The position numbers and the translations under genes were made by a program. The notes beneath the pieces are model-generated. The model worked only from the letters and a program-made list of their open reading frames with translations, was not told where the DNA came from and made no database searches. Positions 1 to 37,515 of a DNA stretch of 47,742 nucleotides are shown one piece after another. How positions within the stretch are numbered: the first letter of the stretch is position 1; every line of letters begins with the position of its first letter. Source of the stretch: a virus; the IMG/VR virus record IMGVR_UViG_3300038336_000104, positions 1-47,742 of that record. The stretch is one strand, 5' to 3'.

Positions 1-127
1 TCCTTGCCTCAGCATTCGATCCGTCAGCTTTACTTGATTCACTTGCACGGCATTTGGATAGCTTACAAAAGCATAGAATTGATATTAACGCCATCGAAAA
101 TGCTACCGAAGCCGGTACAGCACAAGG
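1..127. repeat. Terminal direct repeat, copy 1 (identical to 47616..47742); marks closure of a circular genome or an assembly overlap
   Basis: Bases 1-127 are identical to 47616-47742. The fiber reading frame continues through the junction. Confidence 0.95.
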
Positions 128-17747: not shown

Positions 17748-17791
17748 TTCTGGACCAAGTGTGTTTTGTAATTGTTTCACAAATGTTTTGA

Positions 17792-17872
17792 GCGTTCCCC
17801 TGCGGGTCAGGCTTTCCGCTATATCTTTCCCTGGCTCCACCAGGTAAAGGATGCCGCTGCAATCCTTAACGC
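17792..17872 (+). repeat. About 80-nt structured repeat element, copy 1 (second copy at 27571-27650)
   Basis: The 5' 37 nt match at 33 of 37 and the 3' 27 nt at 25 of 27. The central 16-17 nt differ, but both copies fold into a hairpin there. Confidence 0.85.
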
Positions 17873-17913
17873 GAAAATCTTCCTGGTAAAGGTTGTATTT
17901 CACATGAATTTTG

Positions 17914-17921
17914 TATGTTTG
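17914..17921 (+). promoter_or_regulatory. Candidate Bacteroidota-type -7 box TATGTTTG ahead of the late/head operon
   Basis: Exact TAnnTTTG match 43 nt upstream of the ATG at 17964. Confidence 0.4.
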
Positions 17922-17963
17922 CAGGGCAAGAAAGGTCGGCTTATCTGGGTTATACCAGAAATT

Positions 17964-19049: not shown

Positions 19050-19075
19050 TATTGTACTGTTTTTACGGTACAATT

Positions 19076-19987
19076 ATGGATGTTTCAAAATTTCTTTCTA
19101 AAATACTGAGCACCGCCTGGTTTTATCAGCCTCAAAAATTAATCGCTTATGGTTCTTTTATCAAAGGTTTGATGGATGGTACCATTAAGTTTGAAGAAAT
19201 AAAGCTACCGTTAGGCGCTTATGCAATTTCTCCAACAGGAGATAAAATGATGCTTTATGATTCAGAAGAAGTTAATGACAATTCAAAACCAGCATCCATT
19301 TTCGACCGCTTTCCTGAAAATTCTACTTTGATAATTCCTCTAAAAGACATTATGTTTAAAGAGGACGATTGGTGGGACTGGGGAACAGTAACCATTGCTT
19401 CCTATATACGCGAAGCTGCCGATCATGACAATATTAATGCCATTATTATTGAAACCGATTCGGGTGGAGGAACCGTCGATTCAATATTCCCGATTGTTGA
19501 TGCCATTCTGTATGCAAAAACAAAAAAACCGGTTATTGCCTGGGCCGATACCGCCGCTTCTGCCGCTTACTATAGCATCGCAGCAACGGATCTGATTATT
19601 GCTTCAAACAACATTTCAAGCGAATTCGGAAGTATAGGGGTAATGGTTTCATTTATGGATATAGCTCCCATGTGGGAAAAACAGGGTGTAAAATTCCATA
19701 CCATCTATGCTCCTGAATCGAACTTCAAAAATTTAGCATGGGAAAATGCCCTGAAAGGCGATTACAAATTAATGATGGAAGAAGTTCTTTCGCCATTGGC
19801 TCAGAAATTTCAGGCTGATGTTCGTGAATTCAGAGCCGGAAAAGTAGACATTACCCAAAAAGGCATTTTAAACGGACGCATGTTTTATGCCAACGATGCC
19901 ATTAAATATGGCCTTGCTGACGAAATGGGCAACCTTGATTATGCAGTAAAGCGTGCTATACAAATGGCCGCAAAAAGAAATAAATAA
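19076..19987 (+). CDS. S49-family (SppA/ClpP-fold) serine protease; prohead maturation protease
   Basis: IIETDSGGGTVDS...KPVIAWADTAASAAYYSIAATDLIIASNNISSEFGSIGV is the S49 peptidase signature. It lies upstream of the capsid gene. Confidence 0.85.
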   Translation: MDVSKFLSKILSTAWFYQPQKLIAYGSFIKGLMDGTIKFEEIKLPLGAYAISPTGDKMMLYDSEEVNDNSKPASIFDRFPENSTLIIPLKDIMFKEDDWWDWGTVTIASYIREAADHDNINAIIIETDSGGGTVDSIFPIVDAILYAKTKKPVIAWADTAASAAYYSIAATDLIIASNNISSEFGSIGVMVSFMDIAPMWEKQGVKFHTIYAPESNFKNLAWENALKGDYKLMMEEVLSPLAQKFQADVREFRAGKVDITQKGILNGRMFYANDAIKYGLADEMGNLDYAVKRAIQMAAKRNK

Positions 19988-20012
19988 TTTGTTTAACTAA
20001 ATCTTTTCAAAA

Positions 20013-22157
20013 ATGAATCCAAAATTAATCGCAACCTTGTTAATCGTACTTGGCTTCACAGAACTGGCTTCTGTTGATGGCAAAGTGGCGTTAACCAAGG
20101 AAGATGTTGGCAAATTGCAAGCTGAACATCAAAAAAAGTTTGGAGCTCCTTTAACCTTGGAAGGTTTAGCTTATGATGAAGATGGCTACGCTTCTTTCCA
20201 GGAAGCAGAGATTCTCTCCATTGAAGCTGCCCTGGCCAAAAAAGCTCCCGAGAAACCAAAATCCACAACTGAGGATCCTCCCAAGGTAGATCCGGTTATT
20301 GTTGTATTACAATCAAAAGTAAGTGAGTTAGAAGGAAAGCTTACGGCCATGGAAGTGGCTCAACAGCAAAGCCAGGCTACCATCATCAAATTAGGCAAAC
20401 AGCCTGAGGACGATGTTCCTCACGCCGGAGCCGGTACACCAAACAAAGCAGTTTTTATGCACAGCAAAACCCATTTGTTTTCATCGAAACAAAGTTTTGA
20501 TGCTTACGAAAATCGCCCGTGGAATGCGAGAGCTGCAAGCAATGTTAAAGTTGAGGCAACCGATTACACTCCAATGGACATTACCCAGCTTAACACCGAC
20601 CTGGGTGCCTATTACCGTGAAAATCAAACGGCCCTTATTTCATTCCTGCGGGCCAAAAACAGGCTGCCTGCTTTTTGGAACACCGTTTCAAATGTTCAGG
20701 ATCAGATTGCCTATGCAAAAGCCTTTACCGGCGAAGTAACCCAGGCACGCAAAAAGAAATGGTTACCAAAAGGTTCCTTCGAGTTTCAACCGGAGATTGC
20801 CAAAGTGTATCCAATTCAAATTGATATTACCATTCTGGGGTCTGAACTTCAAAGCATGGAAACAAGCTGGTTGAACCATTTGGAATCCATCAAAAAAGAA
20901 GGATCGAAACCTTACAAAATGAGTTTTGTGGCCTACCTGGCTGGCGAAATTTTGAAAAAAGCAGCCGAGGAAGATCAAATTGCTCACATTCGTGGAATTT
21001 ATATTCCAACGGCTGACAATGCTACCGTGGCAGGGTTATCTATTCACAAACAAAACGGTTTGTTGATTGGTATTAAAGCAGCCCAGAAACGCCGGGTTTA
21101 CATGCCTTACGATTTGGGAGTTCCCACCGAGGAAAATATCCTGGATTATGTAGAAACGCTCGTAAAAAGAATTCCTGAGTACTGGCGCGATATGCCGGGT
21201 ATGGTTCTTTACATGGCCAACTATTGGCGCGATGCTTATTTGAAACGCAGAGAAACCGTAAAAGGGCTCATGCCTACCTTCACCGAAGGTAAACTTACCG
21301 TTGACCTGCATGAAAATATTCGTCTGGAAGGATTGTCATTTTTGAATGACAGCAAATTCATGTTTGCAACAACTGAAGATAACATTTCGCTATTGGAAAA
21401 CATCCCTTCAGAAAAGAAAATTCTGAACATGGAGATGGACAAACGCGACATCAATATTTTTGGTGATTACAAAACAGGCATCCATGTTTGGGCCTATGGT
21501 TACGAATATCCGGATGGTGTTGATCTTTCGGATGACAAACAAATCTTTTTCAGCAATGATGTTGAAATTTTGCCTGATTCGTATGTAAACATTGCTGCTG
21601 ATGTAACCATTCCTTCGGTTCAGTATCACACATCGCTTCGTACCGGGGTTAACACCCAGGCTACCGCGATTACCGATATTGCTGATTCTGCCGTTGGCGA
21701 TTACATTTACATCATCGGTAATACAGGTGCAAATCCATCCACCATTGCCAATGCCGGTAAATTTGACCTGGATGCTGCCATTACCCTCGACGAAAATACG
21801 CTGATCCTTCTATACAAAAGAGGTGCTGCCGATTTCGTTGAAATCGAGCGCTGGGATCTGGCTCTTTCAAATGTTGTTTTCCTGGCTGCTGATGCTACCA
21901 CGGCAAACGCTGCCTCAGGTAAACACTTTGTCACTGCTGTTAACTCAGCGGCCACTGCGATAACCAACATCCTTAATGCAGTTGATGGCGACGTCTACCT
22001 GCTCGAAGGAGGTTCAGATACCAATGCCACAACCATTGCTCAGTCAGGTTATTTCAGCCGTATTTCGGCAGCTATGACCCTGGGTGCAGGCGAATGGATT
22101 AAAGTCCGTTTCAACGGTCTCAAGTTTGTTGAACTTGACCGCTTTGAAATAGCGTAA
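20013..22157 (+). CDS. Major capsid protein candidate with an N-terminal coiled-coil (scaffold-like) region and two C-terminal 74-aa repeat domains
   Basis: 714 aa after the protease and followed by a strong terminator. Coiled coil KVSELEGKLTAMEVAQQQSQ. The capsid assignment rests on position and general resemblance, not on a diagnostic motif. Confidence 0.6.
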   Translation: MNPKLIATLLIVLGFTELASVDGKVALTKEDVGKLQAEHQKKFGAPLTLEGLAYDEDGYASFQEAEILSIEAALAKKAPEKPKSTTEDPPKVDPVIVVLQSKVSELEGKLTAMEVAQQQSQATIIKLGKQPEDDVPHAGAGTPNKAVFMHSKTHLFSSKQSFDAYENRPWNARAASNVKVEATDYTPMDITQLNTDLGAYYRENQTALISFLRAKNRLPAFWNTVSNVQDQIAYAKAFTGEVTQARKKKWLPKGSFEFQPEIAKVYPIQIDITILGSELQSMETSWLNHLESIKKEGSKPYKMSFVAYLAGEILKKAAEEDQIAHIRGIYIPTADNATVAGLSIHKQNGLLIGIKAAQKRRVYMPYDLGVPTEENILDYVETLVKRIPEYWRDMPGMVLYMANYWRDAYLKRRETVKGLMPTFTEGKLTVDLHENIRLEGLSFLNDSKFMFATTEDNISLLENIPSEKKILNMEMDKRDINIFGDYKTGIHVWAYGYEYPDGVDLSDDKQIFFSNDVEILPDSYVNIAADVTIPSVQYHTSLRTGVNTQATAITDIADSAVGDYIYIIGNTGANPSTIANAGKFDLDAAITLDENTLILLYKRGAADFVEIERWDLALSNVVFLAADATTANAASGKHFVTAVNSAATAITNILNAVDGDVYLLEGGSDTNATTIAQSGYFSRISAAMTLGAGEWIKVRFNGLKFVELDRFEIA

Positions 22158-24115: not shown

Positions 24116-24710
24116 ACTGTTTTCCATCGGTGAATTAACCACAAAGTCAGATGAACATCCCGGGGAAAAATCGGCCATTCTCCGGGATAATTATCTGAGC
24201 ATGCATGAGATTAAACTCGAAAGTCTTAAAAATCTCAATGGCCGGTTACCCAATCAGGGTGAGTTCTTTGCCATTTGGACGTTGAAAAGCTTTAATGCTT
24301 TTACATTTATCCCTTACCTGTTGCACGAATGCGAAAAAATTGATTACCTGGTATTGTCAACCTACTCCATCAACCGCAGGATAGTAGATTCACTAATCAA
24401 GCGCATCGATCAGGGCAAAATTGGTCATGTAAAATTATTCATCAGCGATTCAATGAAACACCGGATGCCCAGGGTAGTGGATCACCTTACCAGCCTGGTA
24501 AATTCCAGAAACCAAATATCTATTCATTATGCCTGGAACCACTCAAAAATAACGCTGGTTGAAGCTGCAAACAACCACTACCTGATTGAAGGATCAGGCA
24601 ATTGGAGCGAGAATGCCCAATATGAGCAATACCTATTTTTTAATGATAAACGATTGTACGATTTTCGATTAAACTGTATCACTGATGGGCTTTATAAAAG
24701 ATCTGATTAG
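24108..24710 (+). CDS. Phospholipase D-like (HKD) nuclease-family protein
   Basis: WNHSKITLVEAANNHYLIEGSGNWSENA fits HxK...GSxN, with Glu at the usual Asp position and a longer spacer. The upstream part IDYLVLSTYSINRRIVDSLIKRIDQGKIGHVKLFISDS fits the PLD fold pattern. Confidence 0.55.
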   Translation: MNKLFSIGELTTKSDEHPGEKSAILRDNYLSMHEIKLESLKNLNGRLPNQGEFFAIWTLKSFNAFTFIPYLLHECEKIDYLVLSTYSINRRIVDSLIKRIDQGKIGHVKLFISDSMKHRMPRVVDHLTSLVNSRNQISIHYAWNHSKITLVEAANNHYLIEGSGNWSENAQYEQYLFFNDKRLYDFRLNCITDGLYKRSD

Positions 24711-24720
24711 TAAACCTAAA

Positions 24721-24990
24721 ATGAATTACTCAACCATCTATGTGAAAAGCATAAAGGATTGTATTGATATTCATTTTAAAGGTACTCATGATGATACAAC
24801 CGGATTAGGAGGGTCATGGTCATCAGAAGGATCTTTATTAAAGGTATACAAAGTTTCGAAGTACCTGGTTATTTCAAAACCTTTTAGCAATAAACCGATA
24901 CATGTTATTCAATCAGTTGAAGAATTAAACAACTTTATTAAAGAGAAATACAAAGTCGAATTAGAATGGAATTCACAGAAGAGCAAATAG
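24721..24990 (+). CDS. Hypothetical protein
   Basis: 89 aa from the ATG after the PLD stop. The ORF-track start at 24685 would overlap the PLD gene. Confidence 0.5.
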   Translation: MNYSTIYVKSIKDCIDIHFKGTHDDTTGLGGSWSSEGSLLKVYKVSKYLVISKPFSNKPIHVIQSVEELNNFIKEKYKVELEWNSQKSK

Positions 24991-25271: not shown

Positions 25272-25860
25272 CAATAAATATGATGCATTGCTTTCGTTTA
25301 TCGAAACAGGTGCAGAAGGAGATCTTCCCACAGAAATGGTTGAATATCTTTCGACGCTGGAAATGATCCGTGGAATGCACATGCGTTACGAAAACCGCAG
25401 TGCCATCATTAAATTGCTACAGCTGCCACCTTATGCACTTTCTCCTTATCTGTCTAATAAGTATTACAGCGATGCCATCAATTTCTTTTACCTGGATAAC
25501 GCAATTAAAAAGCAAGCCTGGAGGAACATGTATGCCGAAATGCTTGAACGATCTGCCGAACTCGTTATAAAAACAGCCAAGACTTCCAAGGACCTGGATA
25601 TCTATAAAAACATTATCCTGGCTGCAGGTAATATGCGCCAGCTTAATGAAGCCGAACCTGATGATATCCCGGAAGAATTTTTCAAGAAACCTGTCAAGAT
25701 TTATACACTGGATCCTGAACTGGTTGGACGTACAAAAGCCAACAGATATGAATTAGCCAGGCACATCGATGGACTTGATATCCCTGAGCGTGAAAAATTA
25801 CGTGTGAAAGCTGATGCTATGATTGAGGATATTGATTTATTCCCTGAAGATGAAGATTAA
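25258..25860 (+). CDS. Packaging-module protein of unknown function (alternative small-terminase candidate)
   Basis: 200 aa from the ATG at 25258. Overlaps the previous stop by 14 nt and the terminase start by 11 nt. Confidence 0.55.
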   Translation: MEIDDNKYDALLSFIETGAEGDLPTEMVEYLSTLEMIRGMHMRYENRSAIIKLLQLPPYALSPYLSNKYYSDAINFFYLDNAIKKQAWRNMYAEMLERSAELVIKTAKTSKDLDIYKNIILAAGNMRQLNEAEPDDIPEEFFKKPVKIYTLDPELVGRTKANRYELARHIDGLDIPEREKLRVKADAMIEDIDLFPEDED

Positions 25861-27562
25861 ACTTGAAAAATCTGAGTTCCGTTTGACCAATTGGCTGAGT
25901 ATGGTCATCAATATGATTAGTCCCAAAAATCTATATTTGATTGTTGGTCGCGGAGCAGGTAAAACATCTGATATATTAGCCGGGCGAGCCCAGGATATAG
26001 TGCATGATATGCCAGGAGCTCCACTTGCTTTTGTTGGCGATACGTATACAAATCTACTGAAAAACACAGCCAAAACATTTATTGAAGGATGGGAACGTCT
26101 TGGTTGGATTGAGGCTGATGGAAAAACCAAAGGGCATTTTGTGGTAGACAAACAACCTCCTGATTATTTCAAAAAGCCATTTACAAAGTTCAAATCATTC
26201 AAACACACGATTTCCACTTTTACCGGTGCCAATTTTACACTTGTGTCAATGGATCGGCCTTCCAGTGGTGCCGGTAGCAACTATGTTCATGTGCTTGGAG
26301 ACGAAGTTAAATATTTCAAAAAGAATAAGATAAAGAAACTTACACCCGCCATCAGGGGAAGTATTCAGCGTTTCGGACATTCACCCTATTTTCGGGGACG
26401 TACTTTTACTACCGACTTTCCGGACATGAACCGAATAGATGAAGATGACTGGATCCTGGACTTGAAGAAAAACATGAACAAAGAGCAAATCAAATCGATT
26501 CTCGATTGTGCTTTTATTCTTAATGCTATCCGAATTGAATACCAACAGGCCGAACAAACTAAAAATGTAGAATTGCTTAAGAAAGTTGCTGTTAAGCTTG
26601 TCAGATGGGAGAAAAGGTATTACAAAATCAGGATGAATTCCACTTTTTTCTACATTGCTTCCAGCTTTGTAAATGCCGATATCCTTACCGAGGGCTATTT
26701 CCCTGAACAATTGGCTGATGGGAGCTTAGAGGACTATCTTACATCCATTCTTTCAATGAAACCTGCCATAGAAAAAGGCATGCGTTTTTATGGTAATCTT
26801 AGTGAAGCACACTTTTACCATGATGGATACAACTATTCCTATTATGATCAGTATGGTATTCGTGATAACATTACTCAAAGCAGTCGCGGCTTGAAGTATA
26901 TTCGTAAGCATGAGAAGCTTGAAACTGGTGTCGACTTTGGTAACATGTGTAGTATGGTAATAGGGCAGGAGCAATGGCCAAACTACCGGGTATTAAAAAA
27001 CATGCATGTGCTTACACCCGAGTGGATAGATCATCTGGCTAAAAATTTTATTGATTTTTTCCAACACCACGAGCGCAAAGAATTAGATATGTATTACGAC
27101 CGTTCAGGGAATGCATACAGTAAGCAGAAACAAGACTTTGCAACCAAGTTAAAGAATGCCATCGAGAAGCGTAAAGATGACTCAGGAAGTGTTAAATCAA
27201 CAGGATGGAAAGTTAATCTGATGAGTGTTGGTCAGGGCAATATCTCCCATCCTGAAGAGTTCGACCTGATGAACGACTTGATGGGTAACCATGTTACAGC
27301 ATTACCTAAGCTACTGATTGATCAGTTCGAATGCAAAGAGCTAAAGAGTAGCCTGGAAATGGCACCAGTCGAGAAGGATGCAAAGGGCAATATCAAGAAG
27401 GTCAAGAAGTCAGAGAAGTTCCCAGTCAAACGCCTGCCCATGGAATCAACCAATTACAGTGATGCATTCAAGTACCTGATGTGCCGTAAGAAGTACATGG
27501 ACATTGTTAAGGCACGTCAACAGATCAAGTTTAGTGATGTAGCTATACGTGAAATGAGGTAA
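25850..27562 (+). CDS. terL: Terminase large subunit
   Basis: Walker A-like LYLIVGRGAGKTS, Walker B-like HVLGDEV, about 570 aa with a C-terminal nuclease-size region. I prefer the ATG at 25850 (MKIKLEKSEF). Confidence 0.85.
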   Translation: MKIKLEKSEFRLTNWLSMVINMISPKNLYLIVGRGAGKTSDILAGRAQDIVHDMPGAPLAFVGDTYTNLLKNTAKTFIEGWERLGWIEADGKTKGHFVVDKQPPDYFKKPFTKFKSFKHTISTFTGANFTLVSMDRPSSGAGSNYVHVLGDEVKYFKKNKIKKLTPAIRGSIQRFGHSPYFRGRTFTTDFPDMNRIDEDDWILDLKKNMNKEQIKSILDCAFILNAIRIEYQQAEQTKNVELLKKVAVKLVRWEKRYYKIRMNSTFFYIASSFVNADILTEGYFPEQLADGSLEDYLTSILSMKPAIEKGMRFYGNLSEAHFYHDGYNYSYYDQYGIRDNITQSSRGLKYIRKHEKLETGVDFGNMCSMVIGQEQWPNYRVLKNMHVLTPEWIDHLAKNFIDFFQHHERKELDMYYDRSGNAYSKQKQDFATKLKNAIEKRKDDSGSVKSTGWKVNLMSVGQGNISHPEEFDLMNDLMGNHVTALPKLLIDQFECKELKSSLEMAPVEKDAKGNIKKVKKSEKFPVKRLPMESTNYSDAFKYLMCRKKYMDIVKARQQIKFSDVAIREMR

Positions 27563-27570
27563 TTATTTGG

Positions 27571-27650
27571 GCGTGCCCCTTCGGGTCGGGCTTTCCGCTG
27601 TATCTTTTCCTTGCTTCGCCGGAAAAGGATGCCGCTGCAATCCCTCACGC
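27571..27650 (+). repeat. About 80-nt structured repeat element, copy 2, starting 9 nt after the terL stop
   Basis: See 17792-17872. The closing stem gcgtG/Cacgc differs from gcgtT/Aacgc in copy 1 by a compensatory pair change. Confidence 0.85.
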
Positions 27651-27947
27651 GGTTGGAAAAACATGGTTACTATATTAAAGAAGATACTACTAACCACCAG
27701 ACCGACCAACTTAAACAAAAATTTTAAAATAACTGTATAACGTACTGTTTAGATGCACGTTGTCATATATCCAATAAAAAACGCAATATGCAAAGGCATA
27801 TCATGGGCAGAGCGGGTCGGTCTGAAAGCAGGCTTTCACACTTTCCCGAAAGTGTGATAAAGGGCAAAAAGCCTCATTTACAGGAATAATAATCAATTTG
27901 ATTTTGATTTTTGATTCTTAACATGATTGAAATATTTGTAAACATTT

Positions 27948-28062
27948 AAAAACGGCTACCTTTTCTTTTCGGAAAGAAAAGGTAGACCAAAAGAAAACAG
28001 GCCCCCAAGGAATTTTTGCTTTTATGGTATTCAGTATAAATGGGGTGGGGGCGTTACCTTAA
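27948..28062 (-). ncRNA. Candidate minus-strand small RNA (promoter box to intrinsic terminator, no ATG)
   Basis: The minus-strand -7 box TAACTTTG is the + strand caaagtta at 28070-28077. About 100 nt without an ATG follow. The unit ends in a perfect 13-bp stem with a 4-nt loop (27956-27985) followed by TTTTT on the minus strand. Confidence 0.4.
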
Positions 28063-28083
28063 TTAATAGCAAAGTTATTGATC

Positions 28084-28219
28084 GTGAGTTGACAAAGTCA
28101 ATGGCCGCCTCCTGATGGAGCCGCGGCCCCGTGGGGTTCGGTCAGTTTTCGCTTTTTATTGTTTGTATTTTTCGGGATTGCGAAAACAGACATTCACCAT
28201 TGACAAGAAGTCAACTCAC
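28084..28219 (+). ncRNA. Multi-branch structured element upstream of the ArdC-N-like/SymE-like operon (leader or ncRNA)
   Basis: A bipartite closing stem (28084-28093 with 28210-28219, and 28097-28104 with 28197-28204) encloses hairpins at 28103-28128, about 28127-28136 and 28141-28191. Confidence 0.45.
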
Positions 28220-28284
28220 TCAATAAAATTTTTGCATTAATTAATTTAACGCTGGCGGCAACAGCACAATACGGCATTTGTATC

Positions 28285-28620
28285 ATGAAAAAATCAACAA
28301 CTGACGTTAAACAAAAGCGTCGTGAATTAAGTGCTTTATCCAAGGTGATTAAGGCACAGATCCATTCAGGGGAACTTGATGCAGGATCTGTTAACGAAGG
28401 ATTGATTGAGGTGTATTCCGGAGGAGAAGAAATTGAATTCAACACCTTTCATCAATGGAAAGACAAAGGGCTTTCGGTGAAAAAAGGAAGCAAAGCTTAC
28501 CTGGTATGGGGAACACCCAGGCAGGTACCAGTTCCTGATGCTGAAGATGATGATGAAATGAAGTTCTGGCCAATTTGCTACCTGTTTTCAGCCAATCAAG
28601 TTGAAAGGAGGCAGTCATGA
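28285..28620 (+). CDS. ArdC N-terminal-like (ssDNA-binding, anti-restriction-type) small protein
   Basis: 111 aa. FNTFHQWKDKGLSVKKGSKAYLVWG resembles the W.TF.Q...G..V+KGEK motif of the ArdC N-domain. Only part of that domain is present, so the function is tentative. Confidence 0.45.
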   Translation: MKKSTTDVKQKRRELSALSKVIKAQIHSGELDAGSVNEGLIEVYSGGEEIEFNTFHQWKDKGLSVKKGSKAYLVWGTPRQVPVPDAEDDDEMKFWPICYLFSANQVERRQS

Positions 28621-28811
28621 CACGATCAATTAAAGTGCAATCGCATGTTATTCCTCATTCATTCAGATCACCAATGAAGATTTTTAGTCAATTGTTGCTA
28701 AAAGGAAAATGGTTGTCTGAATCAGGGTTTACTCCTGGTGATCAGGTATCAATTGAGGTGACGCCTAACCAGATAATCCTCCGTAATATTAAGAAAGGAG
28801 GCCCGAGATGA
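28617..28811 (+). CDS. SymE-family (AbrB-fold) toxin-like protein
   Basis: LLLKGKWLSESGFTPGDQVSIEVTPNQIIL aligns with the E. coli SymE core [30 protein letters not shown]. ATGA overlap with the upstream gene. GAAAGGAGG lies 6 nt upstream of the ATG. Confidence 0.8.
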   Translation: MTRSIKVQSHVIPHSFRSPMKIFSQLLLKGKWLSESGFTPGDQVSIEVTPNQIILRNIKKGGPR

Positions 28812-28951
28812 TTGATGCTTTTGTAGAATTTCTCGATTCTATCTACTATGAAGGATATGCGATGCACACAGCTTTGGATGATCCGGGTAGGTTCACTTTT
28901 GAATTTAACGAATTCATTGAAAATTACGGTTCAGGACTTAAAAGGTCCTGA
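28808..28951 (+). CDS. Small acidic protein (47 aa, below the ORF-track cutoff)
   Basis: The ATG at 28808 overlaps the SymE-like stop (ATGA). The same GAAAGGAGG box lies 6 nt upstream. The gene ends inside a strong terminator. Confidence 0.5.
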   Translation: MIDAFVEFLDSIYYEGYAMHTALDDPGRFTFEFNEFIENYGSGLKRS

Positions 28952-28962
28952 ACCTTTTTTTT
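28928..28962 (+). terminator. Rho-independent terminator
   Basis: ggttcaggac N7 gtcctgaacc followed by TTTTTTTT. Confidence 0.85.
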
Positions 28963-28965
28963 GTG

Positions 28966-28973
28966 TAACTTTG
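28966..28973 (+). promoter_or_regulatory. Candidate -7 box TAACTTTG for the XRE-family gene
   Basis: Exact TAnnTTTG 25 nt before the ATG at 28998. Confidence 0.45.
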
Positions 28974-28997
28974 AGCTTTTAAACCAACTAGGTGGCT

Positions 28998-29228
28998 ATG
29001 CTGATTAATAATAAAAAGTATGTTCAAGCCCGGGAAAACATTTGTAGGCAGCTTCGGGAGACTGTTTTGGATAACAAGATATCAGTTGATGAGATTGCTT
29101 TGAAAACTGGATTAGTAAAATCAAACGTTAACAGGGTTTTAAATGGGATGTATGCTCCGAAATTGGACCATGTTATTGCTATTGCTGATGTTATCGGGTT
29201 TAAATTGACTATACAAGAGGTGCCATGA
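28998..29228 (+). CDS. XRE-family HTH transcriptional regulator
   Basis: 76 aa. ISVDEIALKTGLVKSNVNRVLNG...KLDHVIAIADVIGFKL is a classic Cro/C1-type HTH. Confidence 0.75.
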   Translation: MLINNKKYVQARENICRQLRETVLDNKISVDEIALKTGLVKSNVNRVLNGMYAPKLDHVIAIADVIGFKLTIQEVP

Positions 29229-29460
29229 TAAATTTTTAGAAATTTGTAGCTCAGTACTTGATTTATAAACTTTTATTTTTGTACGTTTGATGTCTTATTA
29301 AAAACCCGCATAGCTAAATAAGTTCTAATAATTACATTATTAACCAGTTAACAAATTTTGCTTGTATATAAAGAGTTTAAAATTCGACTATAGCAGGTCG
29401 TTATTTTCCCGGATTCATCTTTCTGCGAGCGATGGAAAGATATAATCTTGTTGGAAAACC

Positions 29461-29492
29461 GGTTCAGGGTCAGAGCTGGCCCTGAACCTTTT
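29461..29492 (+). terminator. Terminator-like hairpin related to 28928-28962
   Basis: ggttcaggg N10 ccctgaacc followed by TTTT. The flanks are also similar to those of the first copy. Confidence 0.6.
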
Positions 29493-29500
29493 ACTGTGTT

Positions 29501-29508
29501 TAATTTTG
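29501..29508 (+). promoter_or_regulatory. Candidate -7 box TAATTTTG
   Basis: Exact TAnnTTTG, at the same offset from the hairpin as the box at 28966. Confidence 0.45.
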
Positions 29509-29547
29509 AGATTTCACATCAAAATGTTCTTACAATGGTTAATAAGA

Positions 29548-29569
29548 GATTATTCTTATAAGAATCATC
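29548..29569. promoter_or_regulatory. 22-bp near-perfect palindrome GATTATTCTTATAAGAATCATC (candidate operator); a second CTTATAAG lies at 29574-29581
   Basis: 10 of 11 symmetric pairs. It sits between the candidate promoter and the ATG at 29648. Confidence 0.5.
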
Positions 29570-29647
29570 AACACTTATAAGGAGCTTTGGAATAATATTT
29601 TAGATAACAATGTTTCTATCTTTGAATAATCAAATTATACTATAATT

Positions 29648-30484
29648 ATGAAAAGCATAATAAAGAATATAATTTTTCCTGTCCTTGCATCTGGTATTTT
29701 TTTTTACGGAGTACAATCCTTAGTTGAGTATTATTCGCGTTCCGATGGCGCTTACCAAATGTTATTATATCAGTCCAATGATGAATATCATGCATTAATA
29801 CAGATTTCAAATGAATCAACAAAATCGCAAAATGACTTTAAGTTTTTCGTTTCTGATATTAAAAATGTTAAGCTTAGTCACTCTCGTGATATTCAATGTG
29901 AATTAATTTATGATAGTAAAGATTCTAGCCACTGTTTCTTTATCGTTCCTGATGTTTATCCTCGCGTAAGTTGTTATATAGATTTATCTGGACTAACCAG
30001 TAATTCGACAATTAGTTTTCTAAATGCGGAAGATCTCGGTTATAGCAGTTATGAAAGTCTAGTAAATAAGCAATTAAATTCTAAGTGGTTAGTTGTCATG
30101 AATTCGATTTTATATACTGTAATATTAGGAATAACCATGACATTACTAAATGTTCACACTACAAAACGATATGAACAAGAAAATAAAACACTTAGAGATA
30201 AATTACAGCAATTAACAAGTAATGTTGAAGATATTGGTAGGTCGTACAAATCATTGATGAAACATAGGTTACTATTACTAGCAAGAATAAGAGATTATGA
30301 GAAAGAATTGAATTTTTGGCAGACTACAATTTCAAAGATATTACTTAAGTCAAAATTGTTAAAACCCAAAACATTATTTAACATGATTACAACCGAACTA
30401 AAGACATTTGGAACAAAGGCATCGGATGTAAAAGATCTGTCATTTGCAGAGTATATTGCAAAAATAATAAGTAAAGAACAATAA
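29648..30484 (+). CDS. AT-rich membrane protein with two TM helices and a C-terminal coiled coil; function unknown
   Basis: 278 aa. TM segments IIFPVLASGIFFYGV and LVVMNSILYTVILGITMTLL. Heptad-like C-terminus. Visibly lower GC than the rest of the genome. Confidence 0.65.
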   Translation: MKSIIKNIIFPVLASGIFFYGVQSLVEYYSRSDGAYQMLLYQSNDEYHALIQISNESTKSQNDFKFFVSDIKNVKLSHSRDIQCELIYDSKDSSHCFFIVPDVYPRVSCYIDLSGLTSNSTISFLNAEDLGYSSYESLVNKQLNSKWLVVMNSILYTVILGITMTLLNVHTTKRYEQENKTLRDKLQQLTSNVEDIGRSYKSLMKHRLLLLARIRDYEKELNFWQTTISKILLKSKLLKPKTLFNMITTELKTFGTKASDVKDLSFAEYIAKIISKEQ

Positions 30485-30645
30485 CTAATTAAACTGATCA
30501 GTGAGAGGTTAACTAAGTTGTAACAATTGCAATTCAATTATGTTAACAAAGTATATTAGCTTGCAAATTAATAACTTACTCCCCACACCCCCTCAATTTT
30601 AACGGCAAAGTTACCTACATTAAAAATATTTTTCTCTAAAAACGA

Positions 30646-30721
30646 AAACCCGCTTCATGGAAATGTAAGCGGGCTTTCGCCCTTCGGGTGCGTTCAGTTT
30701 TTTCGGAAGGGAAAAAACTGA
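30646..30721 (+). ncRNA. Three-hairpin structured element related to the core of 28103-28191
   Basis: Hairpins at 30649-30673, 30678-30690 and 30694-30721. The segment cccttcgggtgcgttcagttttttcg matches cccgtggggttcggtcagttttcg at 20 of 24 positions plus a 2-nt gap. Confidence 0.4.
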
Positions 30722-30823
30722 CATGCATTTTTGTTCCAAAATTTTTAATCCGGTATTGGGTGGCCATTAAAATTAATGGTGTGCCAGGTACCGAAATAAA
30801 TCCGAAAGGCATCGGTGAAAAAA

Positions 30824-31207
30824 ATGTCGAACGACAATAAATCAACAAAAGCACCTGAAAATAAGGTGAAGGAAATGAAAACAGCTGCTAACCAGATTGA
30901 TGATCTGAAGGCATTGCTGGAAAAACAGATCGAGACTTATCAGCGCAAAAGTGAGCTGATCGGTCACCGGGACATGTTTATCGCAAAGCGTACCCAGTTG
31001 ATGAATTTCATTAAAGAGATGGGTACTGACTTTGACGAGAACATCGACAGCCATCAACTGAAGCTGTTTTTGACTGACAACAGGGGTTATCGTGATGATG
31101 CGAAGATCTCAATTTCAAACAACATGATTGTGCGAGATATCATTTCATCCATCATCGTAAGGATCAATACGAAGGTGGCTGAAATTGAAAAGGAGATTGT
31201 TTCCTGA
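30824..31207 (+). CDS. Coiled-coil protein of unknown function
   Basis: 127 aa from the ATG at 30824 (the ORF-track GTG start is at 30815). Confidence 0.6.
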   Translation: MSNDNKSTKAPENKVKEMKTAANQIDDLKALLEKQIETYQRKSELIGHRDMFIAKRTQLMNFIKEMGTDFDENIDSHQLKLFLTDNRGYRDDAKISISNNMIVRDIISSIIVRINTKVAEIEKEIVS

Positions 31208-31213
31208 TTATTA

Positions 31214-31236
31214 AGGGGGCTAACGCCCCTTTTTTT
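31214..31236 (+). terminator. Rho-independent terminator
   Basis: ggggc-taac-gcccc followed by TTTTTTT. Confidence 0.75.
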
Positions 31237-31412
31237 GTTCGTTTTTACAACAAGTTATCAACACCCTTAACTTATTTAAGATCATTAGTTAAATTTGCAG
31301 TTATAATCTCATTTATAGTATTATTCATTGAAATTATTACTGTATTTAGTTCTTATTTGTATTGTGGGTTTAATTTATTGAAAGTTTTCTTGACTTAATC
31401 AATAGTTGTATA

Positions 31413-31547
31413 TATATTTGCAAATCGAAAATTATCTGAATAACCTCTTGTTAGGTTGACCATTAAAAATTTGCGCCACTTATTACTATTTAAAAACTGT
31501 GTCACGCAAGAACTTGAACCCGATATCCCAAGTATCGGGTTTTTTTT
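31413..31547 (+). ncRNA. Candidate small RNA unit: -7 box TATATTTG (31413-31420), about 90 nt without an ATG, and an intrinsic terminator (31517-31547)
   Basis: Exact TAnnTTTG with a TTG about 20 nt upstream. The terminator is aacccgata N7 tatcgggtt followed by a T-run. There is no ATG between box and terminator. Confidence 0.4.
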
Positions 31548-31601
31548 CGCTTAATAGCGAAGGTAGTTACCGCCTAAAGGGACAGAAAGGAGGTATTCCT
31601 C

Positions 31602-31730
31602 ATAGATAATTTTCGAACAATTGATGGTCGACTACATAAGTTGGTATTCTGTAAATACATAACCAGAAATGGCAAACGTGTTTATCCGAAAAAGGCGAAA
31701 GCGTTTTCGTTTTGGGTACCTGTAACTTAA
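31602..31730 (+). pseudogene. Possible 42-codon basic ORF with ATA where a start codon is expected (decayed or non-canonically initiated gene)
   Basis: GAAAGGAGG (31585-31593) is followed 8 nt later by an in-frame ATA. The frame stays open to the TAA at 31728-31730 (..KLVFCKYITRNGKRVYPKKAKAFSFWVPVT). The same SD box precedes the two ATGA starts at 28617 and 28808. Confidence 0.25.
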
Positions 31731-31751
31731 ATGGTCTTGGGAAACCATGAA

Positions 31752-31778
31752 GGGGGCTGTTGGAGCCCCCTTTTTTTT
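31752..31778 (+). terminator. Rho-independent terminator
   Basis: gggggct N5 agccccc followed by TTTTTTTT. Confidence 0.8.
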
Positions 31779-31832
31779 ATACCCACTTTTCTGTCCTTTG
31801 CATTTTTTTATCCATGCTGCACCTTTGCATCC

Positions 31833-32150
31833 ATGGATGAAATCAATTTATTTTCTGCAATTGCAGAAATGCGAAAGTTAACGGCTCAGGGCATTCCTTT
31901 TTCGTTTGAGCATTACACCTGGGACGCGCTCAGGCAAAAATCGTCGGGTTTGCGGCGGGTGGATAAGGCAACGCTCAGGCCTTCGGCACGGGGTGATAGC
32001 ATTGAGCATGCTGATCACAAATTGTTTTATCAGGACTTGAACGTGGGAGATCCACTGAAAAATAAACGAAACTGCTGGCAAATTCTCATCGTGAGATTCA
32101 ACGGCATTAAGGTTACTCCAAAATCTGTGTTTTATGAGAATATCAAGTAA
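31833..32150 (+). CDS. Hypothetical protein upstream of the portal candidate
   Basis: 105 aa from the internal ATG (MDEINLFSAIAEMRKL). The longer ORF-track start would read through the terminator at 31752-31778. Confidence 0.55.
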   Translation: MDEINLFSAIAEMRKLTAQGIPFSFEHYTWDALRQKSSGLRRVDKATLRPSARGDSIEHADHKLFYQDLNVGDPLKNKRNCWQILIVRFNGIKVTPKSVFYENIK

Positions 32151-33477
32151 CGGAAACTACGCGCTGGTAGATACCGGCACGTTTTTGTTTTCGGCTGAAA
32201 TTTCGGCCACCGACAGAACGCCATCCACAGGTGTGCAGCCGTATTTTACAGGAACCGGCACCACGCCCATGCAAATCGGAAGGTTTTCGATTGTGCCTTA
32301 TGGTGATCAGAACACGCTTCCGGGAGATATCCGCGCCATGCTGGATGAAAACAATGTTTCGCCTGAAATTCTGTTAAAGAAAACCCATCTGCTCTGGGGC
32401 CAGGGCCCTGAATTGTACGAAATAAAGTTTAGTGATGGCCAGCGCAAAAAGGAATTTGTAACCGATCCTGAAGTATCTGCATGGCTAAAAGATTGGGATT
32501 ATCAGCAATATTTGCTTAAATCGTTGGTGGAGTTTGAGCATGTAAACGGCCATTTCCCAAAGTATTTTCGCAACCGTGCTGCGCGTATTGGCGGTAAGCC
32601 CATGATTGCCAAACTTGAGTGTGTAAGTGCCATCGGTGCCAGGCTCGAATATCCGGATGATTATGATAGAATAAACCACATCATTACAGGGGATTTTGAA
32701 CAGCCTTTTAGGGATGATTTTCGTCAGTATCCTATATGGAACCCGATGGATCCGTTCCGGAACCCGGTGAGCATGCGCTACAGCAATATGTACAGCTTTG
32801 CCCTGGAAAATGAGTATTCGCGCCCTTCATTCTTTGGTTTGTTCAACTGGATTAAGCTTGGATCGAGTTTGCCTATTCTGTTACTCAACTTTAACGCCAA
32901 TGCGGCTGCCATCCGGTATCATATTGAGGTGCCTGCCTTGTATTGGGCGCAAAAGGAAGATATGTTGCGTAAAAATTGCGAGCTGCTGGGTATTGAGTAT
33001 AAAAACAGCATGCTTGAGGATTTAAAAACTGAGGTTTTTTTAAAATTTGGTGAAGCGCTGATTGGCATCGAAAAGGCAGGTAAGATGATCACCTCTGAAA
33101 CCATCTATGATGATTTAGCCCAGGAATACGTTGGATGGAAAATTAACACCATCGACCAGAAGGTAAAGAACTTTATCAGCGCCCAGGTGGAAATTGCCAA
33201 ACGTGCCGACTTTGAAATCACCGCCGGCTTTGGCTTGCATCCTGCCCTGAGCAATATGAGCGCCGATGGTAACCTGCCTTCCGGATCTGAACAACTATAT
33301 GCATTCAAACTTTACCTGGCTACCTCGGTGGATATCCCGGAAAGTATTGTTTGTAAGGATATCAACATGGCCATTGCTGCTAACTGGCCTAATAAAACGG
33401 TGAGGATGGGCTTTTACCACGATGCCGTATTAACGGAATCGCAGACTTCACCAGGAGACAGAATTAAAAACAATTAA
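32134..33477 (+). CDS. Portal protein candidate
   Basis: 447 aa, the first large structural gene after the terminase once the island is ignored. The size and position fit a portal, but I recognised no diagnostic motif. Confidence 0.5.
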   Translation: MRISSNGNYALVDTGTFLFSAEISATDRTPSTGVQPYFTGTGTTPMQIGRFSIVPYGDQNTLPGDIRAMLDENNVSPEILLKKTHLLWGQGPELYEIKFSDGQRKKEFVTDPEVSAWLKDWDYQQYLLKSLVEFEHVNGHFPKYFRNRAARIGGKPMIAKLECVSAIGARLEYPDDYDRINHIITGDFEQPFRDDFRQYPIWNPMDPFRNPVSMRYSNMYSFALENEYSRPSFFGLFNWIKLGSSLPILLLNFNANAAAIRYHIEVPALYWAQKEDMLRKNCELLGIEYKNSMLEDLKTEVFLKFGEALIGIEKAGKMITSETIYDDLAQEYVGWKINTIDQKVKNFISAQVEIAKRADFEITAGFGLHPALSNMSADGNLPSGSEQLYAFKLYLATSVDIPESIVCKDINMAIAANWPNKTVRMGFYHDAVLTESQTSPGDRIKNN

Positions 33478-33481
33478 AATT

Positions 33482-33739
33482 ATGAGTGCCTTAAAACCAA
33501 TAGAATTTAAAGAATCCAATAAAGTATTGACCAAGCCACAAAATATGGATGAAGAATGTGGCGATTTACATGTTTTTAATGATGGTAAACAAAGCATAAG
33601 TTGTTGGAGATTATCATTTAAACAACGAATCAGCGCTTTATTATTTGGCCGTATATGGCTGAGTGTTTTTGGAGGAATAACACAACCTCCCGTTTGGATT
33701 GATTGCTCAAAAACCGTTTTCATCGATAAGGAGGAATAA
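33482..33739 (+). CDS. Hypothetical small protein
   Basis: 85-aa ORF, tightly packed. Confidence 0.55.
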   Translation: MSALKPIEFKESNKVLTKPQNMDEECGDLHVFNDGKQSISCWRLSFKQRISALLFGRIWLSVFGGITQPPVWIDCSKTVFIDKEE

Positions 33740-36725: not shown

Positions 36726-36805
36726 CAAAGATACATTAAAATATAAAGAAATATATAAAAGTTATTAACAATACTAGGAAATACATAGAAATACTATTAT
36801 GTTTG
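36726..36805. promoter_or_regulatory. Divergent promoter/operator region: minus-strand -7 box TATCTTTG (36726-36733), three tandem 10-bp ATAC repeats (36771-36800), and + strand -7 box TATGTTTG (36798-36805)
   Basis: Both boxes match TAnnTTTG exactly. The repeats read atactaggaa / atacatagaa / atactattat directly. Confidence 0.45.
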
Positions 36806-36828
36806 CAAAAACATTTAAACTTTTACCT

Positions 36829-37515
36829 ATGGAAACACAAGAAATCGTAATTTCAAAAAACACACTGGAGACTGTTCAATTTGGTGTAGACTTGTTATTC
36901 TGCCCTATTATAGATGGGGTGCCTTTTGTTGTATTGAATGGGATCATTAGTAGTATTGGACTAAACTATAATACGGCTATTGATAACGTTAAAGCACACT
37001 CAAGATTTGGGAAACATACCATTCAAATTCAGATTGGGAAACCTGAAAAAAACAAAAACCGACACGCCGTAAGGCGTGTCAGTTTGGAAAAAAACGACCA
37101 AAAAGAGGTATATTTTATTGAGAATACCCCTGAATGGGGGGTATTTATTGAGCAAATTAGAGGATATAAGTACACTCTTTTGCCTATACACAAAGTTGCA
37201 GGATGGTTATACTCGATTCAATTGGGAAAGGTAAAACCGGAAATTCAACCCAGACTTGAGAAATATCAGGACGAATGCGATGATGTTTTGTTCCAGCATT
37301 TTTTTGGCAGTGCTGTTCAGCGTAAAAACTTATTATTTGAAAAAGCCAGGATAAAATTGGATAGAAAAGCTGTATTGAAACGGCTTGAAAAGAACCAAGA
37401 TTATGTTATATACGTTTCGTTGTGCGCAGAAGAAATGAGGCTCGGTACTCAAATGAATAACGCTGACAAGGTAATCGTTTCAACCCAGCTTACCATGTGG
37501 GATAAACAGGATTAG
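36829..37515 (+). CDS. Antirepressor (P22 Ant N-terminal domain family)
   Basis: LLPIHKVAGWLYSIQLGKVKPEIQPRLEKYQDECDDVLFQHFF matches the conserved LP..K+.GWL..I...KVKPE....YQ.ECDDVL core of P22_AR_N proteins. I prefer the start at 36829 because 36799 lies inside the -7 box. Confidence 0.85.
   Translation: METQEIVISKNTLETVQFGVDLLFCPIIDGVPFVVLNGIISSIGLNYNTAIDNVKAHSRFGKHTIQIQIGKPEKNKNRHAVRRVSLEKNDQKEVYFIENTPEWGVFIEQIRGYKYTLLPIHKVAGWLYSIQLGKVKPEIQPRLEKYQDECDDVLFQHFFGSAVQRKNLLFEKARIKLDRKAVLKRLEKNQDYVIYVSLCAEEMRLGTQMNNADKVIVSTQLTMWDKQD

Follow-up and report, generated by a model that had tools for sequence, protein, structure and literature searches.

The subject of this analysis is an island of 4270 nucleotides (nt), at positions 27563-31832 of the viral sequence IMGVR_UViG_3300038336_000104 from IMG/VR, which was analysed over its full length of 47,742 nt (the window). 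The island lies between the gene for the terminase large subunit (terL) and the head genes. It is probably a counter-defence slot with cis-acting RNA leaders, the function being one that we infer from its cargo. The slot would be filled by an exchanged core module, which in this lineage would additionally carry an XRE-family regulator, and by two private moron-type cassettes. One of these would encode a membrane protein with two transmembrane (TM) segments, and the other a small-RNA-like unit and a peptide of 29 amino acids (aa). Judged from their folds, the core module proteins, which are small, probably bind nucleic acid, and the module may serve anti-restriction-type protection of incoming or replicating phage DNA. 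Its two transcription units (ArdC-N/SymE/p47 and cc130) would each be preceded by a four-helix-junction element that is most likely an RNA leader, because it is read on the sense strand. The non-coding half of the island would then consist mostly of the module's own cis-acting apparatus, being neither spacer nor debris; this is part of the same reading and is held as probable with it.

The left flank of the island, terL (25823-27562, + strand), is an open reading frame (ORF) of 579 aa with a Walker-A-like motif, GRGAGKT. No match to it was found in Pfam, PHROG or PDB; its homologues carry the labels "terminase" (in phage BT-TP2) and "terminase LSU" (large subunit; in Porphyromonas phages). An earlier, sequence-only reading of the window had placed the end of terL at 27562 and the start of the next large structural gene at 32134. 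Both positions were confirmed, and the latter gene (32134-33477, + strand) encodes a 447-aa portal homologue (phrog_22277, E value 5e-76). Cellulophaga Ingeline phages, Porphyromonas phages and BT-TP2 have homologues of it that are labelled "portal", and a PDB sequence search returned no match. The island does split terL from the portal gene, as that reading had stated, but its immediate right neighbour is not the portal gene; it is the conserved gene p105 (31833-32150, + strand; phrog_26140, E value 7.8e-10), and most relatives examined have a homologue of it directly 5' of portal.

The estimate that about half of the island is non-coding was borne out. The non-coding share is 50.0% with the six small genes, which are real and correctly placed according to ORF and family searches, and 47.9% when an overlooked 29-aa ORF is included. 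By greedy ORF cover, the island ranks first among 435 sliding 4270-nt windows (non-coding fraction 0.43 vs a median of 0.05), making it the least coding 4.3 kb of the genome. The lower GC content seen across its middle was also recovered, at 0.28 for 29.5-30.5 kb vs approximately 0.41 elsewhere. Between 27000 and 32500, 14 terminator-like sites were scored vs 4.0 ± 2.4 in shuffles (3.5-fold); five strong ones on the + strand (28928-28954, 29461-29488, 31213-31232, 31516-31542 and 31749-31773) agree with the earlier count of at least five intrinsic terminators. The count of four TAnnTTTG boxes was too low, since the island has seven on the + strand and four on the - strand. The whole window has 53 such boxes vs 59 ± 6.7 expected, showing no enrichment. 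The island, 9% of the genome, holds seven of the genome's 24 + strand boxes, and its AT-richness accounts for part of this share. Well-placed boxes occur only at 28966 (18 nt 5' of the XRE start), 29617 (23 nt 5' of the start of tm278, the membrane protein gene) and 31413 (with TTG 20 nt upstream).

To compare the junction across relatives, loci were gathered through terL (80 from IMG/VR, 50 genome loci from GTDB and two annotated phages), and the window's proteins were then located in them. Counts refer to the 110 loci in which terL and portal lie on one strand, and labels such as L001 denote related loci or contigs compared with the window. In 80 of the 110 loci, the terL-portal gap is 540-750 nt and contains only a p105 homologue (approximately 100 aa), a figure that overstates the independent observations because many minimal-gap loci come from one metagenome (3300045988), with 93 distinct spacers. 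The remaining 30 have gaps of 1.08-4.36 kb with changing cargo; the window's gap, at 4571 nt, is the largest. The expanded slots contain 131 ORFs of at least 60 aa, belonging to 63 families. In nearly all expanded loci with a detected p105, the variable DNA lies between terL and p105. The prophage L133 (gap 11716-14623) was observed to be an exception, with its extra DNA between p105 and portal. The flanks are thus syntenic and the content varies or is absent, as in a phage variable hotspot: the terL-portal junction is a genuine accessory-gene hotspot with turnover. The synteny comparison proposed by the sequence-only reading therefore agreed with its expectation of a variable junction, and a check for relatives that keep the block as conserved structural core genes found that they do not.

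Recognisable cargo in the slots comprises orphan DNA methyltransferases of three kinds (N6_Mtase, D12 MTase and N6_N4_Mtase), ArdC-N and SymE-like proteins, and also DUF932, RadC, Tad2-like (Thoeris anti-defence), HicA, DUF5053, DUF6943 and ClpP/SDH protease proteins. Across the family, this cargo is counter-defence-like, and the anti-defence character that had been anticipated for such junctions is a clear flavour of the relatives' slots. BT-TP2, a cultured phage of B. thetaiotaomicron, has ten small genes in the slot; the Porphyromonas phages have a minimal slot with nothing beyond a p105-like gene. Within the same terL-p105 slot, a Tad2-like gene was located by Pfam at 5790-6095 of L006, and RadC-like JAB genes at 12886-13341 of L005 and 5342-5806 of L145, the last directly 3' of an ArdC-N gene.

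The composite make-up of the island was resolved by comparison with its nearest relatives, L001 (terL 95% identical at the amino-acid level) and L138 (77%). The segments 27563-29207 and 30582-31245 are common to the window, L001 and L138. Segment 29208-30581 is private to the window, L001 and L138 each holding other content there, and segment 31246-31790 is likewise private, the L001 and L138 flanks joining within 3 nt. Three more distant contigs (L139, L142 and L145) were reached via homologues of the 111-aa ArdC-N protein. Their terL products are only 23-26% identical to that of the window, and L139 and L145 have no other backbone gene in common with the window within 5-6 kb on each side; the L142 contig stops just after p47. 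Directly 3' of terL, these contigs carry most or all of the core parts in the window's order, namely Flavo-1, conserved box, hairpin, element A, ArdC-N, p47, element C and cc130. All eight recur in L139, and most of them in L142 and L145. Flavo-1 is present in L139 and L142, the TCATATATCCA box with its palindrome and a GGGCA..GCG motif in L139 and L145, and A-type and C-type elements are also among the parts recurring in this set. The proteins show identities of 53-65% (ArdC-N), 49-62% (p47) and 43-48% (cc130). SymE-like, XRE and RadC genes and the two private cassettes are optional extras to this core. A family probably related to cc130 occurs together with SymE-like, ArdC-N or DUF932, and methyltransferase genes on the opposite strand in nine other loci, so the same protein set recurs in either orientation. 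By these comparisons of order and identity, most of the island is one coherent module that moves as a block and is horizontally exchanged. The proposal that the junction collects stand-alone units thus holds for the two private moron-type segments, but not for most of the island.

Element A (28084-28219, + strand) and element C (30613-30753, + strand) are four-helix junctions of approximately 140 nt, in which a closing helix surrounds three hairpins. A lies just 5' of the ArdC-N gene and C just 5' of cc130. The closing helix of A pairs 28084-28104 with 28196-28219, and its hairpins are at approximately 28103-28128, 28128-28136 and 28140-28193; that of C pairs 30619-30642 with 30728-30749 around hairpins at 30643-30679, 30680-30688 and 30689-30727, followed by a U-run. 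With RNAalifold on five sequences of A, 92.4% of cells were found to be paired vs 36-42% in slid controls, and eight pairs were altered on both sides vs 0-3 in the controls. A is 96% identical to its L001 counterpart, the adjacent coding sequence being 83% identical. For C, RNAalifold gave 56 pairs, ten of them with both sides altered. A covariance model built from four C sequences, R2, detects the copies in the window, L001, L138 and L139 and also an unseen fifth copy, in L145, with 112 bits. With five rows, 97.9% of cells are paired and 18 of the 56 pairs are altered on both sides vs 2-3 in slid controls, a count that leaves out two reverse-strand rows (alignment A16) that inflate the raw pair count. 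The C-built model also recognised, along their whole length, the A-type copies in L139 and L140 (E value approximately 0.02), indicating that A and C are paralogous. The covariation support for the two elements is good, not conclusive.

The C model gives 163-168 bits on the + strand vs 28-32 bits on the - strand and several G.U pairs are conserved, indicative of an RNA made in the direction of the genes. C is also the best conserved part of the island, being 97-98% identical to L001 and L138 (74-76% for the cc130 coding sequence) and still 75-78% identical over approximately 215 nt to L139 and L145, where most of the coding DNA no longer aligns. AUGCAUUUUUG comes after its third hairpin, which scored as a terminator, and the U-run pairs with the A-rich 5' side of the closing helix. 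This arrangement of hairpin and U-run resembles an attenuator or transcriptional insulator. Because it looks like a terminator, the leaders may act as RNA attenuators or insulators, probably gating or insulating read-through from the late (terL) transcript. In an Rfam scan of 27400-32300 (E value up to 1), Flavo-1 was the only credible match, and A, C and the small-RNA candidates were unmatched; elements A and C match no Rfam family and are previously undescribed. Pattern scans of IMG/VR and JGI metagenomes for the box, A, C and the cassette terminator yielded no contig beyond the comparative set, which is small for this reason. That A and C form a new family of approximately 140-nt four-helix-junction cis-regulatory RNAs, controlling Bacteroidota phage counter-defence genes and exchanged with these genes and Flavo-1 between phages with unrelated packaging and head genes, is offered as a tentative proposal that we consider possible rather than probable.

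The first core gene, at 28285-28620 (+ strand), encodes a stand-alone ArdC-N domain protein of 111 aa. Its 68 homologues have 86-157 aa, and many of them were already annotated as PF08401, one as "ArdC family protein". An AlphaFold2 model (predicted local distance difference test score, pLDDT, of 84) gave R388 ArdC (6I89, 6SNA) as the top three Foldseek matches in PDB, with probability 1.00, followed by Rad4/XPC chains. The protein is thus predicted to have the fold of the N-terminal single-stranded DNA (ssDNA)-binding domain of ArdC. The C-terminal metalloprotease domain is absent, from this protein of 111 aa as from its family of 86-157 aa. The second gene, at 28617-28811 (+ strand), whose start overlaps the ArdC-N stop, encodes a 64-aa protein with a pI of 11.1. 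It matches SymE_toxin (E value 4.7e-10; 39.9 bits vs a cut-off of 29) and MazE_antitoxin (E value 6.5e-5), and reaches 25.2 bits vs a cut-off of 132 with the NCBIfam SymE equivalog, a model of 113 positions vs 64 aa here. By these profile matches it is a basic protein of SymE/AbrB fold and no full SymE. Homologues lie in the same slot in L001, L002, L004, L012, L025, L027 and L138. Last in this three-gene operon is p47 (28808-28951, + strand), encoding an acidic protein of 47 aa (pI 4.2) with no family match; the terminator at 28928-28954 overlaps its 3' end. It is kept beside ArdC-N, with 49-98% amino-acid identity, in L001, L002, L138, L139, L140, L142 and L145.

The cc130 gene (30815-31207, + strand; start probably the ATG at 30824) encodes a coiled-coil protein and is followed by the terminator at 31213-31232. 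No Pfam or PDB assignment was obtained; homologues were found in L001, L138, L139, L145, L028, L090, L091 and L102. From an hhalign comparison (probability 73%, E value 3e-5), cc130 is probably related to the 127-149-aa family of the nine opposite-strand loci. In public gene calls for the same phage (L135-L137), the SymE-like gene is absent, cc130 starts at 30875 and p105 starts at 31731, reading through the terminator at 31749-31773. A hairpin with an AGGGCA/AAGGCA loop and co-varying stems (CCG/CGG, CCGC/GCGG and CCCC/GGGG) was observed before the start codon of cc130 in the window (30790-30815) and before those of the ArdC-N genes of distant phages (L139, approximately 5955-5995; L142, approximately 3880-3925; L145, approximately 4950-4995). 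This hairpin, common to the two genes, may be a translation-control element.

An XRE-family helix-turn-helix gene (28992-29228, + strand; HTH_3, E value 5.3e-6) starts 41 nt downstream of p47, has a -7 box of its own (TAACTTTG, 28966-28973) and was found only in the window, L001 and L138. Palindromes of the form TTGAC-N3/5-GTCAA flank element A at 28090-28102 and 28200-28214; perfect copies occur only in the same three XRE-bearing lineages. A promoter-like site, TTGACA-18-TAAAAT (28200-28229, + strand; 11 of 12 consensus matches), lies in the 3' arm of an inverted repeat of 43 nt (28051-28093/28210-28252), and TTGACAAGAAGT is invariant in the window, L001, L138, L139 and L140. Small genes followed by a helix-turn-helix gene, with inverted repeats at the operon promoter, are the layout of acr-aca loci. 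From this anatomy, the XRE gene and the palindromes have the arrangement of a putative Aca-type autoregulator, a case that represents one phylogenetic event, and the XRE protein may repress the ArdC-N operon through the palindromes in an Aca-like manner.

At the left border of the module, the second copy of an 80-nt element that the sequence-only reading had described is indeed present, and is the known Rfam motif Flavo-1 (RF01705; 27580-27658, - strand), with 51.6 bits vs a gathering score of 42. In the window, L001, L138, L139 and L142, Flavo-1 is located approximately 17-70 nt 3' of the terL stop in the same orientation; these five phages span two terL lineages, and the element is always antisense to the Rfam model. 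The window's other copy, at 17801-17877 (51.5 bits vs the same gathering score of 42), is the only further one in 2.3 Mb of related loci. That copy lies within 17768-17963, a segment replaced in L001 by 857 unrelated nt, and so it too marks a place of variation, where the replication-side genes meet the S49-protease block. The fold of Flavo-1 is no more stable than that of shuffles on either strand (z score approximately 0), and the nearest exact TAnnTTTG box on the - strand is at 28077. In Flavobacterium psychrophilum, Flavo-1 matches occur in either orientation, often outside transcribed regions (PMC9723704). A repetitive extragenic palindrome (REP)-like or protein-binding DNA element fits Flavo-1 better than a small-RNA gene. 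The window's copy is the same as the Flavo-1 RNA motif described previously (PMC2864571; PMC9723704), in that it passes the Rfam gathering score; it differs in lying in a phage, at a fixed site after terL, antisense to the Rfam model.

Next to Flavo-1 is a conserved box (27763-27825, + strand), which consists of TCATATATCCA, the palindrome ATATGC-AAAG-GCATAT and then GGGCAGAGCGGGTCGG. With L002, in which the flanking DNA cannot be aligned, it shares 85% identity over 66 nt, and it was also found in L001, L138, L139, L145, L102 and L134. A 1-nt indel relative to L002 rules out that it is coding. Further right, a candidate leftward small transcript (27945-28077, - strand) has an exact -7 box (TAACTTTG, 28077-28070), a stem-loop and a hairpin at 27985-27956 with U5, scored as a - strand terminator; its fold has -34.3 kcal/mol (z score -3.6). 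Most of the A and C copies inspected have such a - strand box, exact or near (TAACTTTG or TACTTTTG), immediately on their 5' side, and the polypyrimidine/polypurine hairpin recurs with other stem sequences in L139, L140 and L145. The box could drive a leftward RNA of approximately 120 nt (28063-27945) ending at the hairpin at 27985-27956, a suggestion that is tentative because the U-tract after the hairpin is not conserved. A pairing of the G-rich stretch 28041-28052 with the C-rich stretch 30582-30593, considered for long-range or leftward transcripts, was dropped because these boxes are not kept in L139 and L140.

The AT-rich private cassette (29208-30581, + strand; GC 0.29) has no counterpart in L001 and L138, where other genes occupy the position. 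It contains an orphan terminator (29461-29488), the -7 box TATCTTTG (29617-29624), located 23 nt before the ATG, and tm278 (29648-30484), and, the element C hairpins aside, lacks its own terminator; no homologue was detected for 29229-29647. The tm278 product, of 278 aa with two TM segments, was taken for an orphan in a word-indexed search, a view overturned by a full HMMER scan, which placed it in an unnamed family of approximately 275-300 aa with 233 representatives at an E value up to 1e-3. The family's C-terminal motif is RLLLLARIxDYxKELxFWRDTIRKILY...LKTYGT. A re-search with the family profile added nothing, no relative was found in viral contigs, and the family has no match in PADLOC. 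An AlphaFold2 model (pLDDT 85) consists of TM1, a beta-sandwich (34-134) and then a helix of 100 residues, of which the second hydrophobic segment and a coiled coil form part; Foldseek gave merely generic carbohydrate-binding or Ig-like beta-sandwich matches. From its anatomy and moron context, our guess is that tm278 could be an exclusion-type envelope membrane protein expressed from the prophage. An architecture analogous to that of tm278, without sequence similarity, was observed in a 276-aa protein encoded right after terL in L004 (11738-12568), which has two hydrophobic segments and a long coiled coil.

The other private cassette, of 545 nt (31246-31790, + strand), follows closely on the cc130 terminator and is itself closed by a terminator resembling that one. 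Its first unit has a promoter, TTG-N20-TATATTTG, at 31390-31420, approximately 120 nt and a terminator at 31516-31542, so that 31390-31550 runs canonically from promoter to terminator and has no credible ORF. The second unit is the 29-aa ORF at 31641-31730, with the terminator at 31749-31773; its presence corrects the earlier description of 31208-31832 as ORF-free. The sole detected homologue of the peptide, IFCRYIVKNGRKIFPKRSRAFRIWV, is in the related phage locus L035, beside a HicA-like gene; as the similarity extends upstream of the TTG start, the true start of the ORF is uncertain. The cassette folds with a z score of -2.9, and no DNA homologue was found elsewhere by distant search or by the metagenome pattern scans. 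Both cassettes have the marks of morons, the first in being private, GC-deviant and preceded by a -7 box, the second in being private with its own promoter and two terminators. Only 31427-31550 (+ strand) and perhaps 28063-27945 (- strand) look like free-standing small-RNA genes, neither with comparative support. The suggestion that several of the units are RNA genes is therefore to be replaced by a non-coding half made up mainly of cis-elements tied to protein genes, with one or two small-RNA-like units.

Several other explanations were weighed. A loose pile of independently acquired and transcribed morons, in which several ORF-free stretches are free-standing RNA genes, would account for the two private, terminator-bounded insertions, for the many + strand terminators and some well-placed -7 boxes, and for the ORF-less promoter-to-terminator unit 31390-31550 and the possible leftward transcript 28063-27945. 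It is nevertheless rather unlikely, for the core order is kept in L139, and mostly in L142 and L145, despite terL products only 23-26% identical, A and C are paralogous and lie directly 5' of protein genes, as expected of cis-leaders and not of autonomous RNA genes, and Rfam finds Flavo-1 alone. The fact that 80 of the 110 relatives assemble heads without any island content argues against a phage regulatory module, in which the XRE protein, the AbrB/SymE-fold protein and the leaders would control head-gene timing or the choice between lysis and lysogeny; so do the slot neighbours (methyltransferases, Tad2, RadC and DUF932) and the ArdC-N domain, which is not a transcription-factor fold. This explanation is consistent with the regulator-type DNA-binding folds of two of the six proteins, the operator-like palindromes overlapping the promoter-like site, the position of the block immediately upstream of the head genes, and the occurrence of the TCATATATCCA box 268 nt upstream of p105 in L102 and L134, but on balance is unlikely. 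The SymE_toxin match (E value 4.7e-10), the overlapping genes for a basic (pI 11.1) and an acidic (pI 4.2) protein and the presence of HicA in the slot elsewhere point to a SymE-type toxin-antitoxin, addiction or exclusion unit, whose toxin would be checked by p47 or an antisense RNA. We regard this as very unlikely, given a protein of 64 aa that reaches 25 bits vs the 132-bit equivalog cut-off and matches a DNA binder of the MazE/AbrB antitoxin type almost equally well, and given that in L139, L142 and L145 p47 occurs with no SymE-like gene detected. Consensus scans of the - strand between 28077 and 30340 revealed no exact TAnnTTTG box and no sigma-70-like site, so that no such box faces the 5' end of the SymE-like gene. 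A type I SymE/SymR pair in particular was rejected, there being no antisense promoter and the protein being no full SymE.

It was also considered that A and C are Frpo-like ssDNA promoters acquired along with ArdC-N from a conjugative element's leading region. In the window's clade, element A folds as DNA into an imperfect hairpin of approximately 210 nt (folding free energy -47 kcal/mol; z score -8.9 vs mononucleotide shuffles), with TTGACA and TAAAAT in the stem. This hairpin, upstream of an anti-restriction-type gene, has the features by which Frpo candidates were defined, in the window's clade only, and methyltransferases, anti-restriction and toxin-antitoxin genes also typify leading-region islands (PMC11541004). 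The conserved structure is, however, on the sense strand (163-168 vs 28-32 bits, with G.U pairs), whereas an ssDNA promoter needs the template strand; the outer stem with the -10 box is not kept in L139 and L140, and tailed phages inject double-stranded DNA. In addition, the main promoter type of Bacteroidota differs from TTGACA/TATAAT. The Frpo-like promoter was rejected on strand grounds and is highly improbable. Least credible, and scarcely to be entertained, is the view that the non-coding half represents decaying remnants of former cargo genes. The stretch 29229-29647, for which no homologue was detected and in which an orphan terminator lies, would suit this view; on the other side, non-coding segments are the island's best conserved parts, and tblastn of the 131 cargo proteins of relatives found no gene fragments in the ORF-free stretches, on which ground the remnant reading was rejected.

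The reading of the island as a counter-defence slot with RNA leaders, which we hold to be the probable one, has points weighing against it as well. The overstated independence of the minimal-gap loci has been given above. The PADLOC scan that had been proposed found no model matched by the island proteins, the best E value being 0.012, for the helix-turn-helix gene. The Pfam ArdcN match of the 111-aa protein is only at threshold (22.6 bits, equal to the cut-off), the Foldseek E value is merely 4e-3, and the family profile did not reach ArdC among PDB sequences. The SymE-like, XRE and cc130 proteins could equally be regulators. The covariation of A and C comes from only three or four independent lineages and from alignments that are partly model-fitted. 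Upstream of element A no canonical + strand promoter was found, and sense transcription is assumed to be terL read-through.

The counter-defence slot can be compared with several known systems. The acr-aca loci of Mu-like Pseudomonas phages, the work of Bondy-Denomy et al. in 2013, are reportedly located within the head-morphogenesis region. Like these loci, the slot occupies a constant position in the late structural region and holds small, rapidly changing genes, with a helix-turn-helix gene on the 3' side and inverted repeats at the promoter. The island differs in its cargo (ArdC-N, SymE-like proteins and methyltransferases), the host phylum, the large structured leaders and an XRE repression that is putative; no known Acr homologue turned up in the island, no Acr library having been searched. 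Morons are said to have been described in lambdoid phages by Juhala et al. in 2000. The segments 29208-30581 and 31246-31790 are like them in being extra promoter-gene-terminator cassettes absent from the nearest relatives, one of them GC-deviant; the rest of the island is unlike them, being a conserved multi-gene module and not a single-gene insertion. The hotspots of P2-like phages and P4-like satellites, which hold anti-phage defence systems, are similar in their conserved position and high cargo turnover among syntenic phages (PMC9122126), but the island has no PADLOC match and the recognisable cargo is counter-defence-like. The Frpo anti-defence islands of plasmid leading regions (PMC11541004) have similar cargo types and long structured DNA or RNA upstream of genes; here, a phage takes the place of the conjugative element, the conserved structure is that of the sense strand, and the -35 box is contained in only part of it. 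With ArdC of R388 and RP4 (6I89, 6SNA), the 111-aa protein shares the fold of the N-terminal ssDNA-binding domain, and it differs in its length, in lacking the C-terminal metalloprotease domain and in its marginal sequence similarity.

As to the phage itself, window positions 1-127 and 47616-47742 are identical 127-nt ends, indicating a complete circular assembly of approximately 47,615 bp, and several public assemblies (L135-L137) hold the same phage as a free contig of approximately 47 kb. The phage is temperate, as indicated by a tyrosine integrase gene (5554-6753, - strand), with a helix-turn-helix protein gene alongside. Relatives of the terL and portal proteins are confined to Bacteroidota phages and prophages: Cellulophaga Ingeline, Flavobacterium 6H/1H/2A, Porphyromonas gingivalis phages and Bacteroides phage BT-TP2 among the former, and prophages of Flavobacterium, Maribacter and many Bacteroidales metagenome-assembled genomes among the latter. 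Among GenBank phages, megablast found nothing matching 25.8-34 kb. As part of the overall reading, these phages are probably a family of temperate Bacteroidota siphoviruses whose accessory slot runs from the terL stop to the p105-portal head genes. Elsewhere in the window, an S49 (ClpP-like) peptidase gene and a 714-aa ORF lie upstream of terL (19052-22157), and morphogenesis-type genes appear to be present on both sides of the packaging genes. A gene for a protein with a P22_AR_N (antirepressor N-terminal) domain lies within the structural region at 36799-37515; a patch of 30% GC at 36.5-37 kb adjoins it, and the place is a further moron-like spot. Relative to L001, two more small window-specific inserts, 24694-24980 and 33478-33739, contain one ORF each: 24685-24990 encodes 101 aa, and 33482-33739, which separates portal from the DUF6712 "adaptor", encodes 85 aa. 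In the related phage contig L004, positions 21142-21219 match the c4-2 RNA (RF02944) above its gathering score, a member of the clan of P1/P7 c4 antisense repressor RNAs.

Phage counter-defence genes have mostly been found by searching variable slots, and such a slot is now pinned down for a widespread family whose cultured and prophage relatives infect Bacteroides, Porphyromonas, Flavobacterium and Cellulophaga. The stand-alone ArdC-N protein, p47, cc130 and the tm278 family are unstudied candidates from it. Conserved structured leaders are unusual, and the covariance model R2 provides a sequence-and-structure handle for finding more such modules. The Flavo-1 motif, for which no function is known, gains a reproducible genomic context; if the tentative proposal for A and C is true, it would be the first defined context of this orphan motif, as a terL 3'-end element marking the left border of the module. 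That the best conserved parts are non-coding and move with the cargo between phage backbones suggests that, in this family, regulation is part of what is exchanged.

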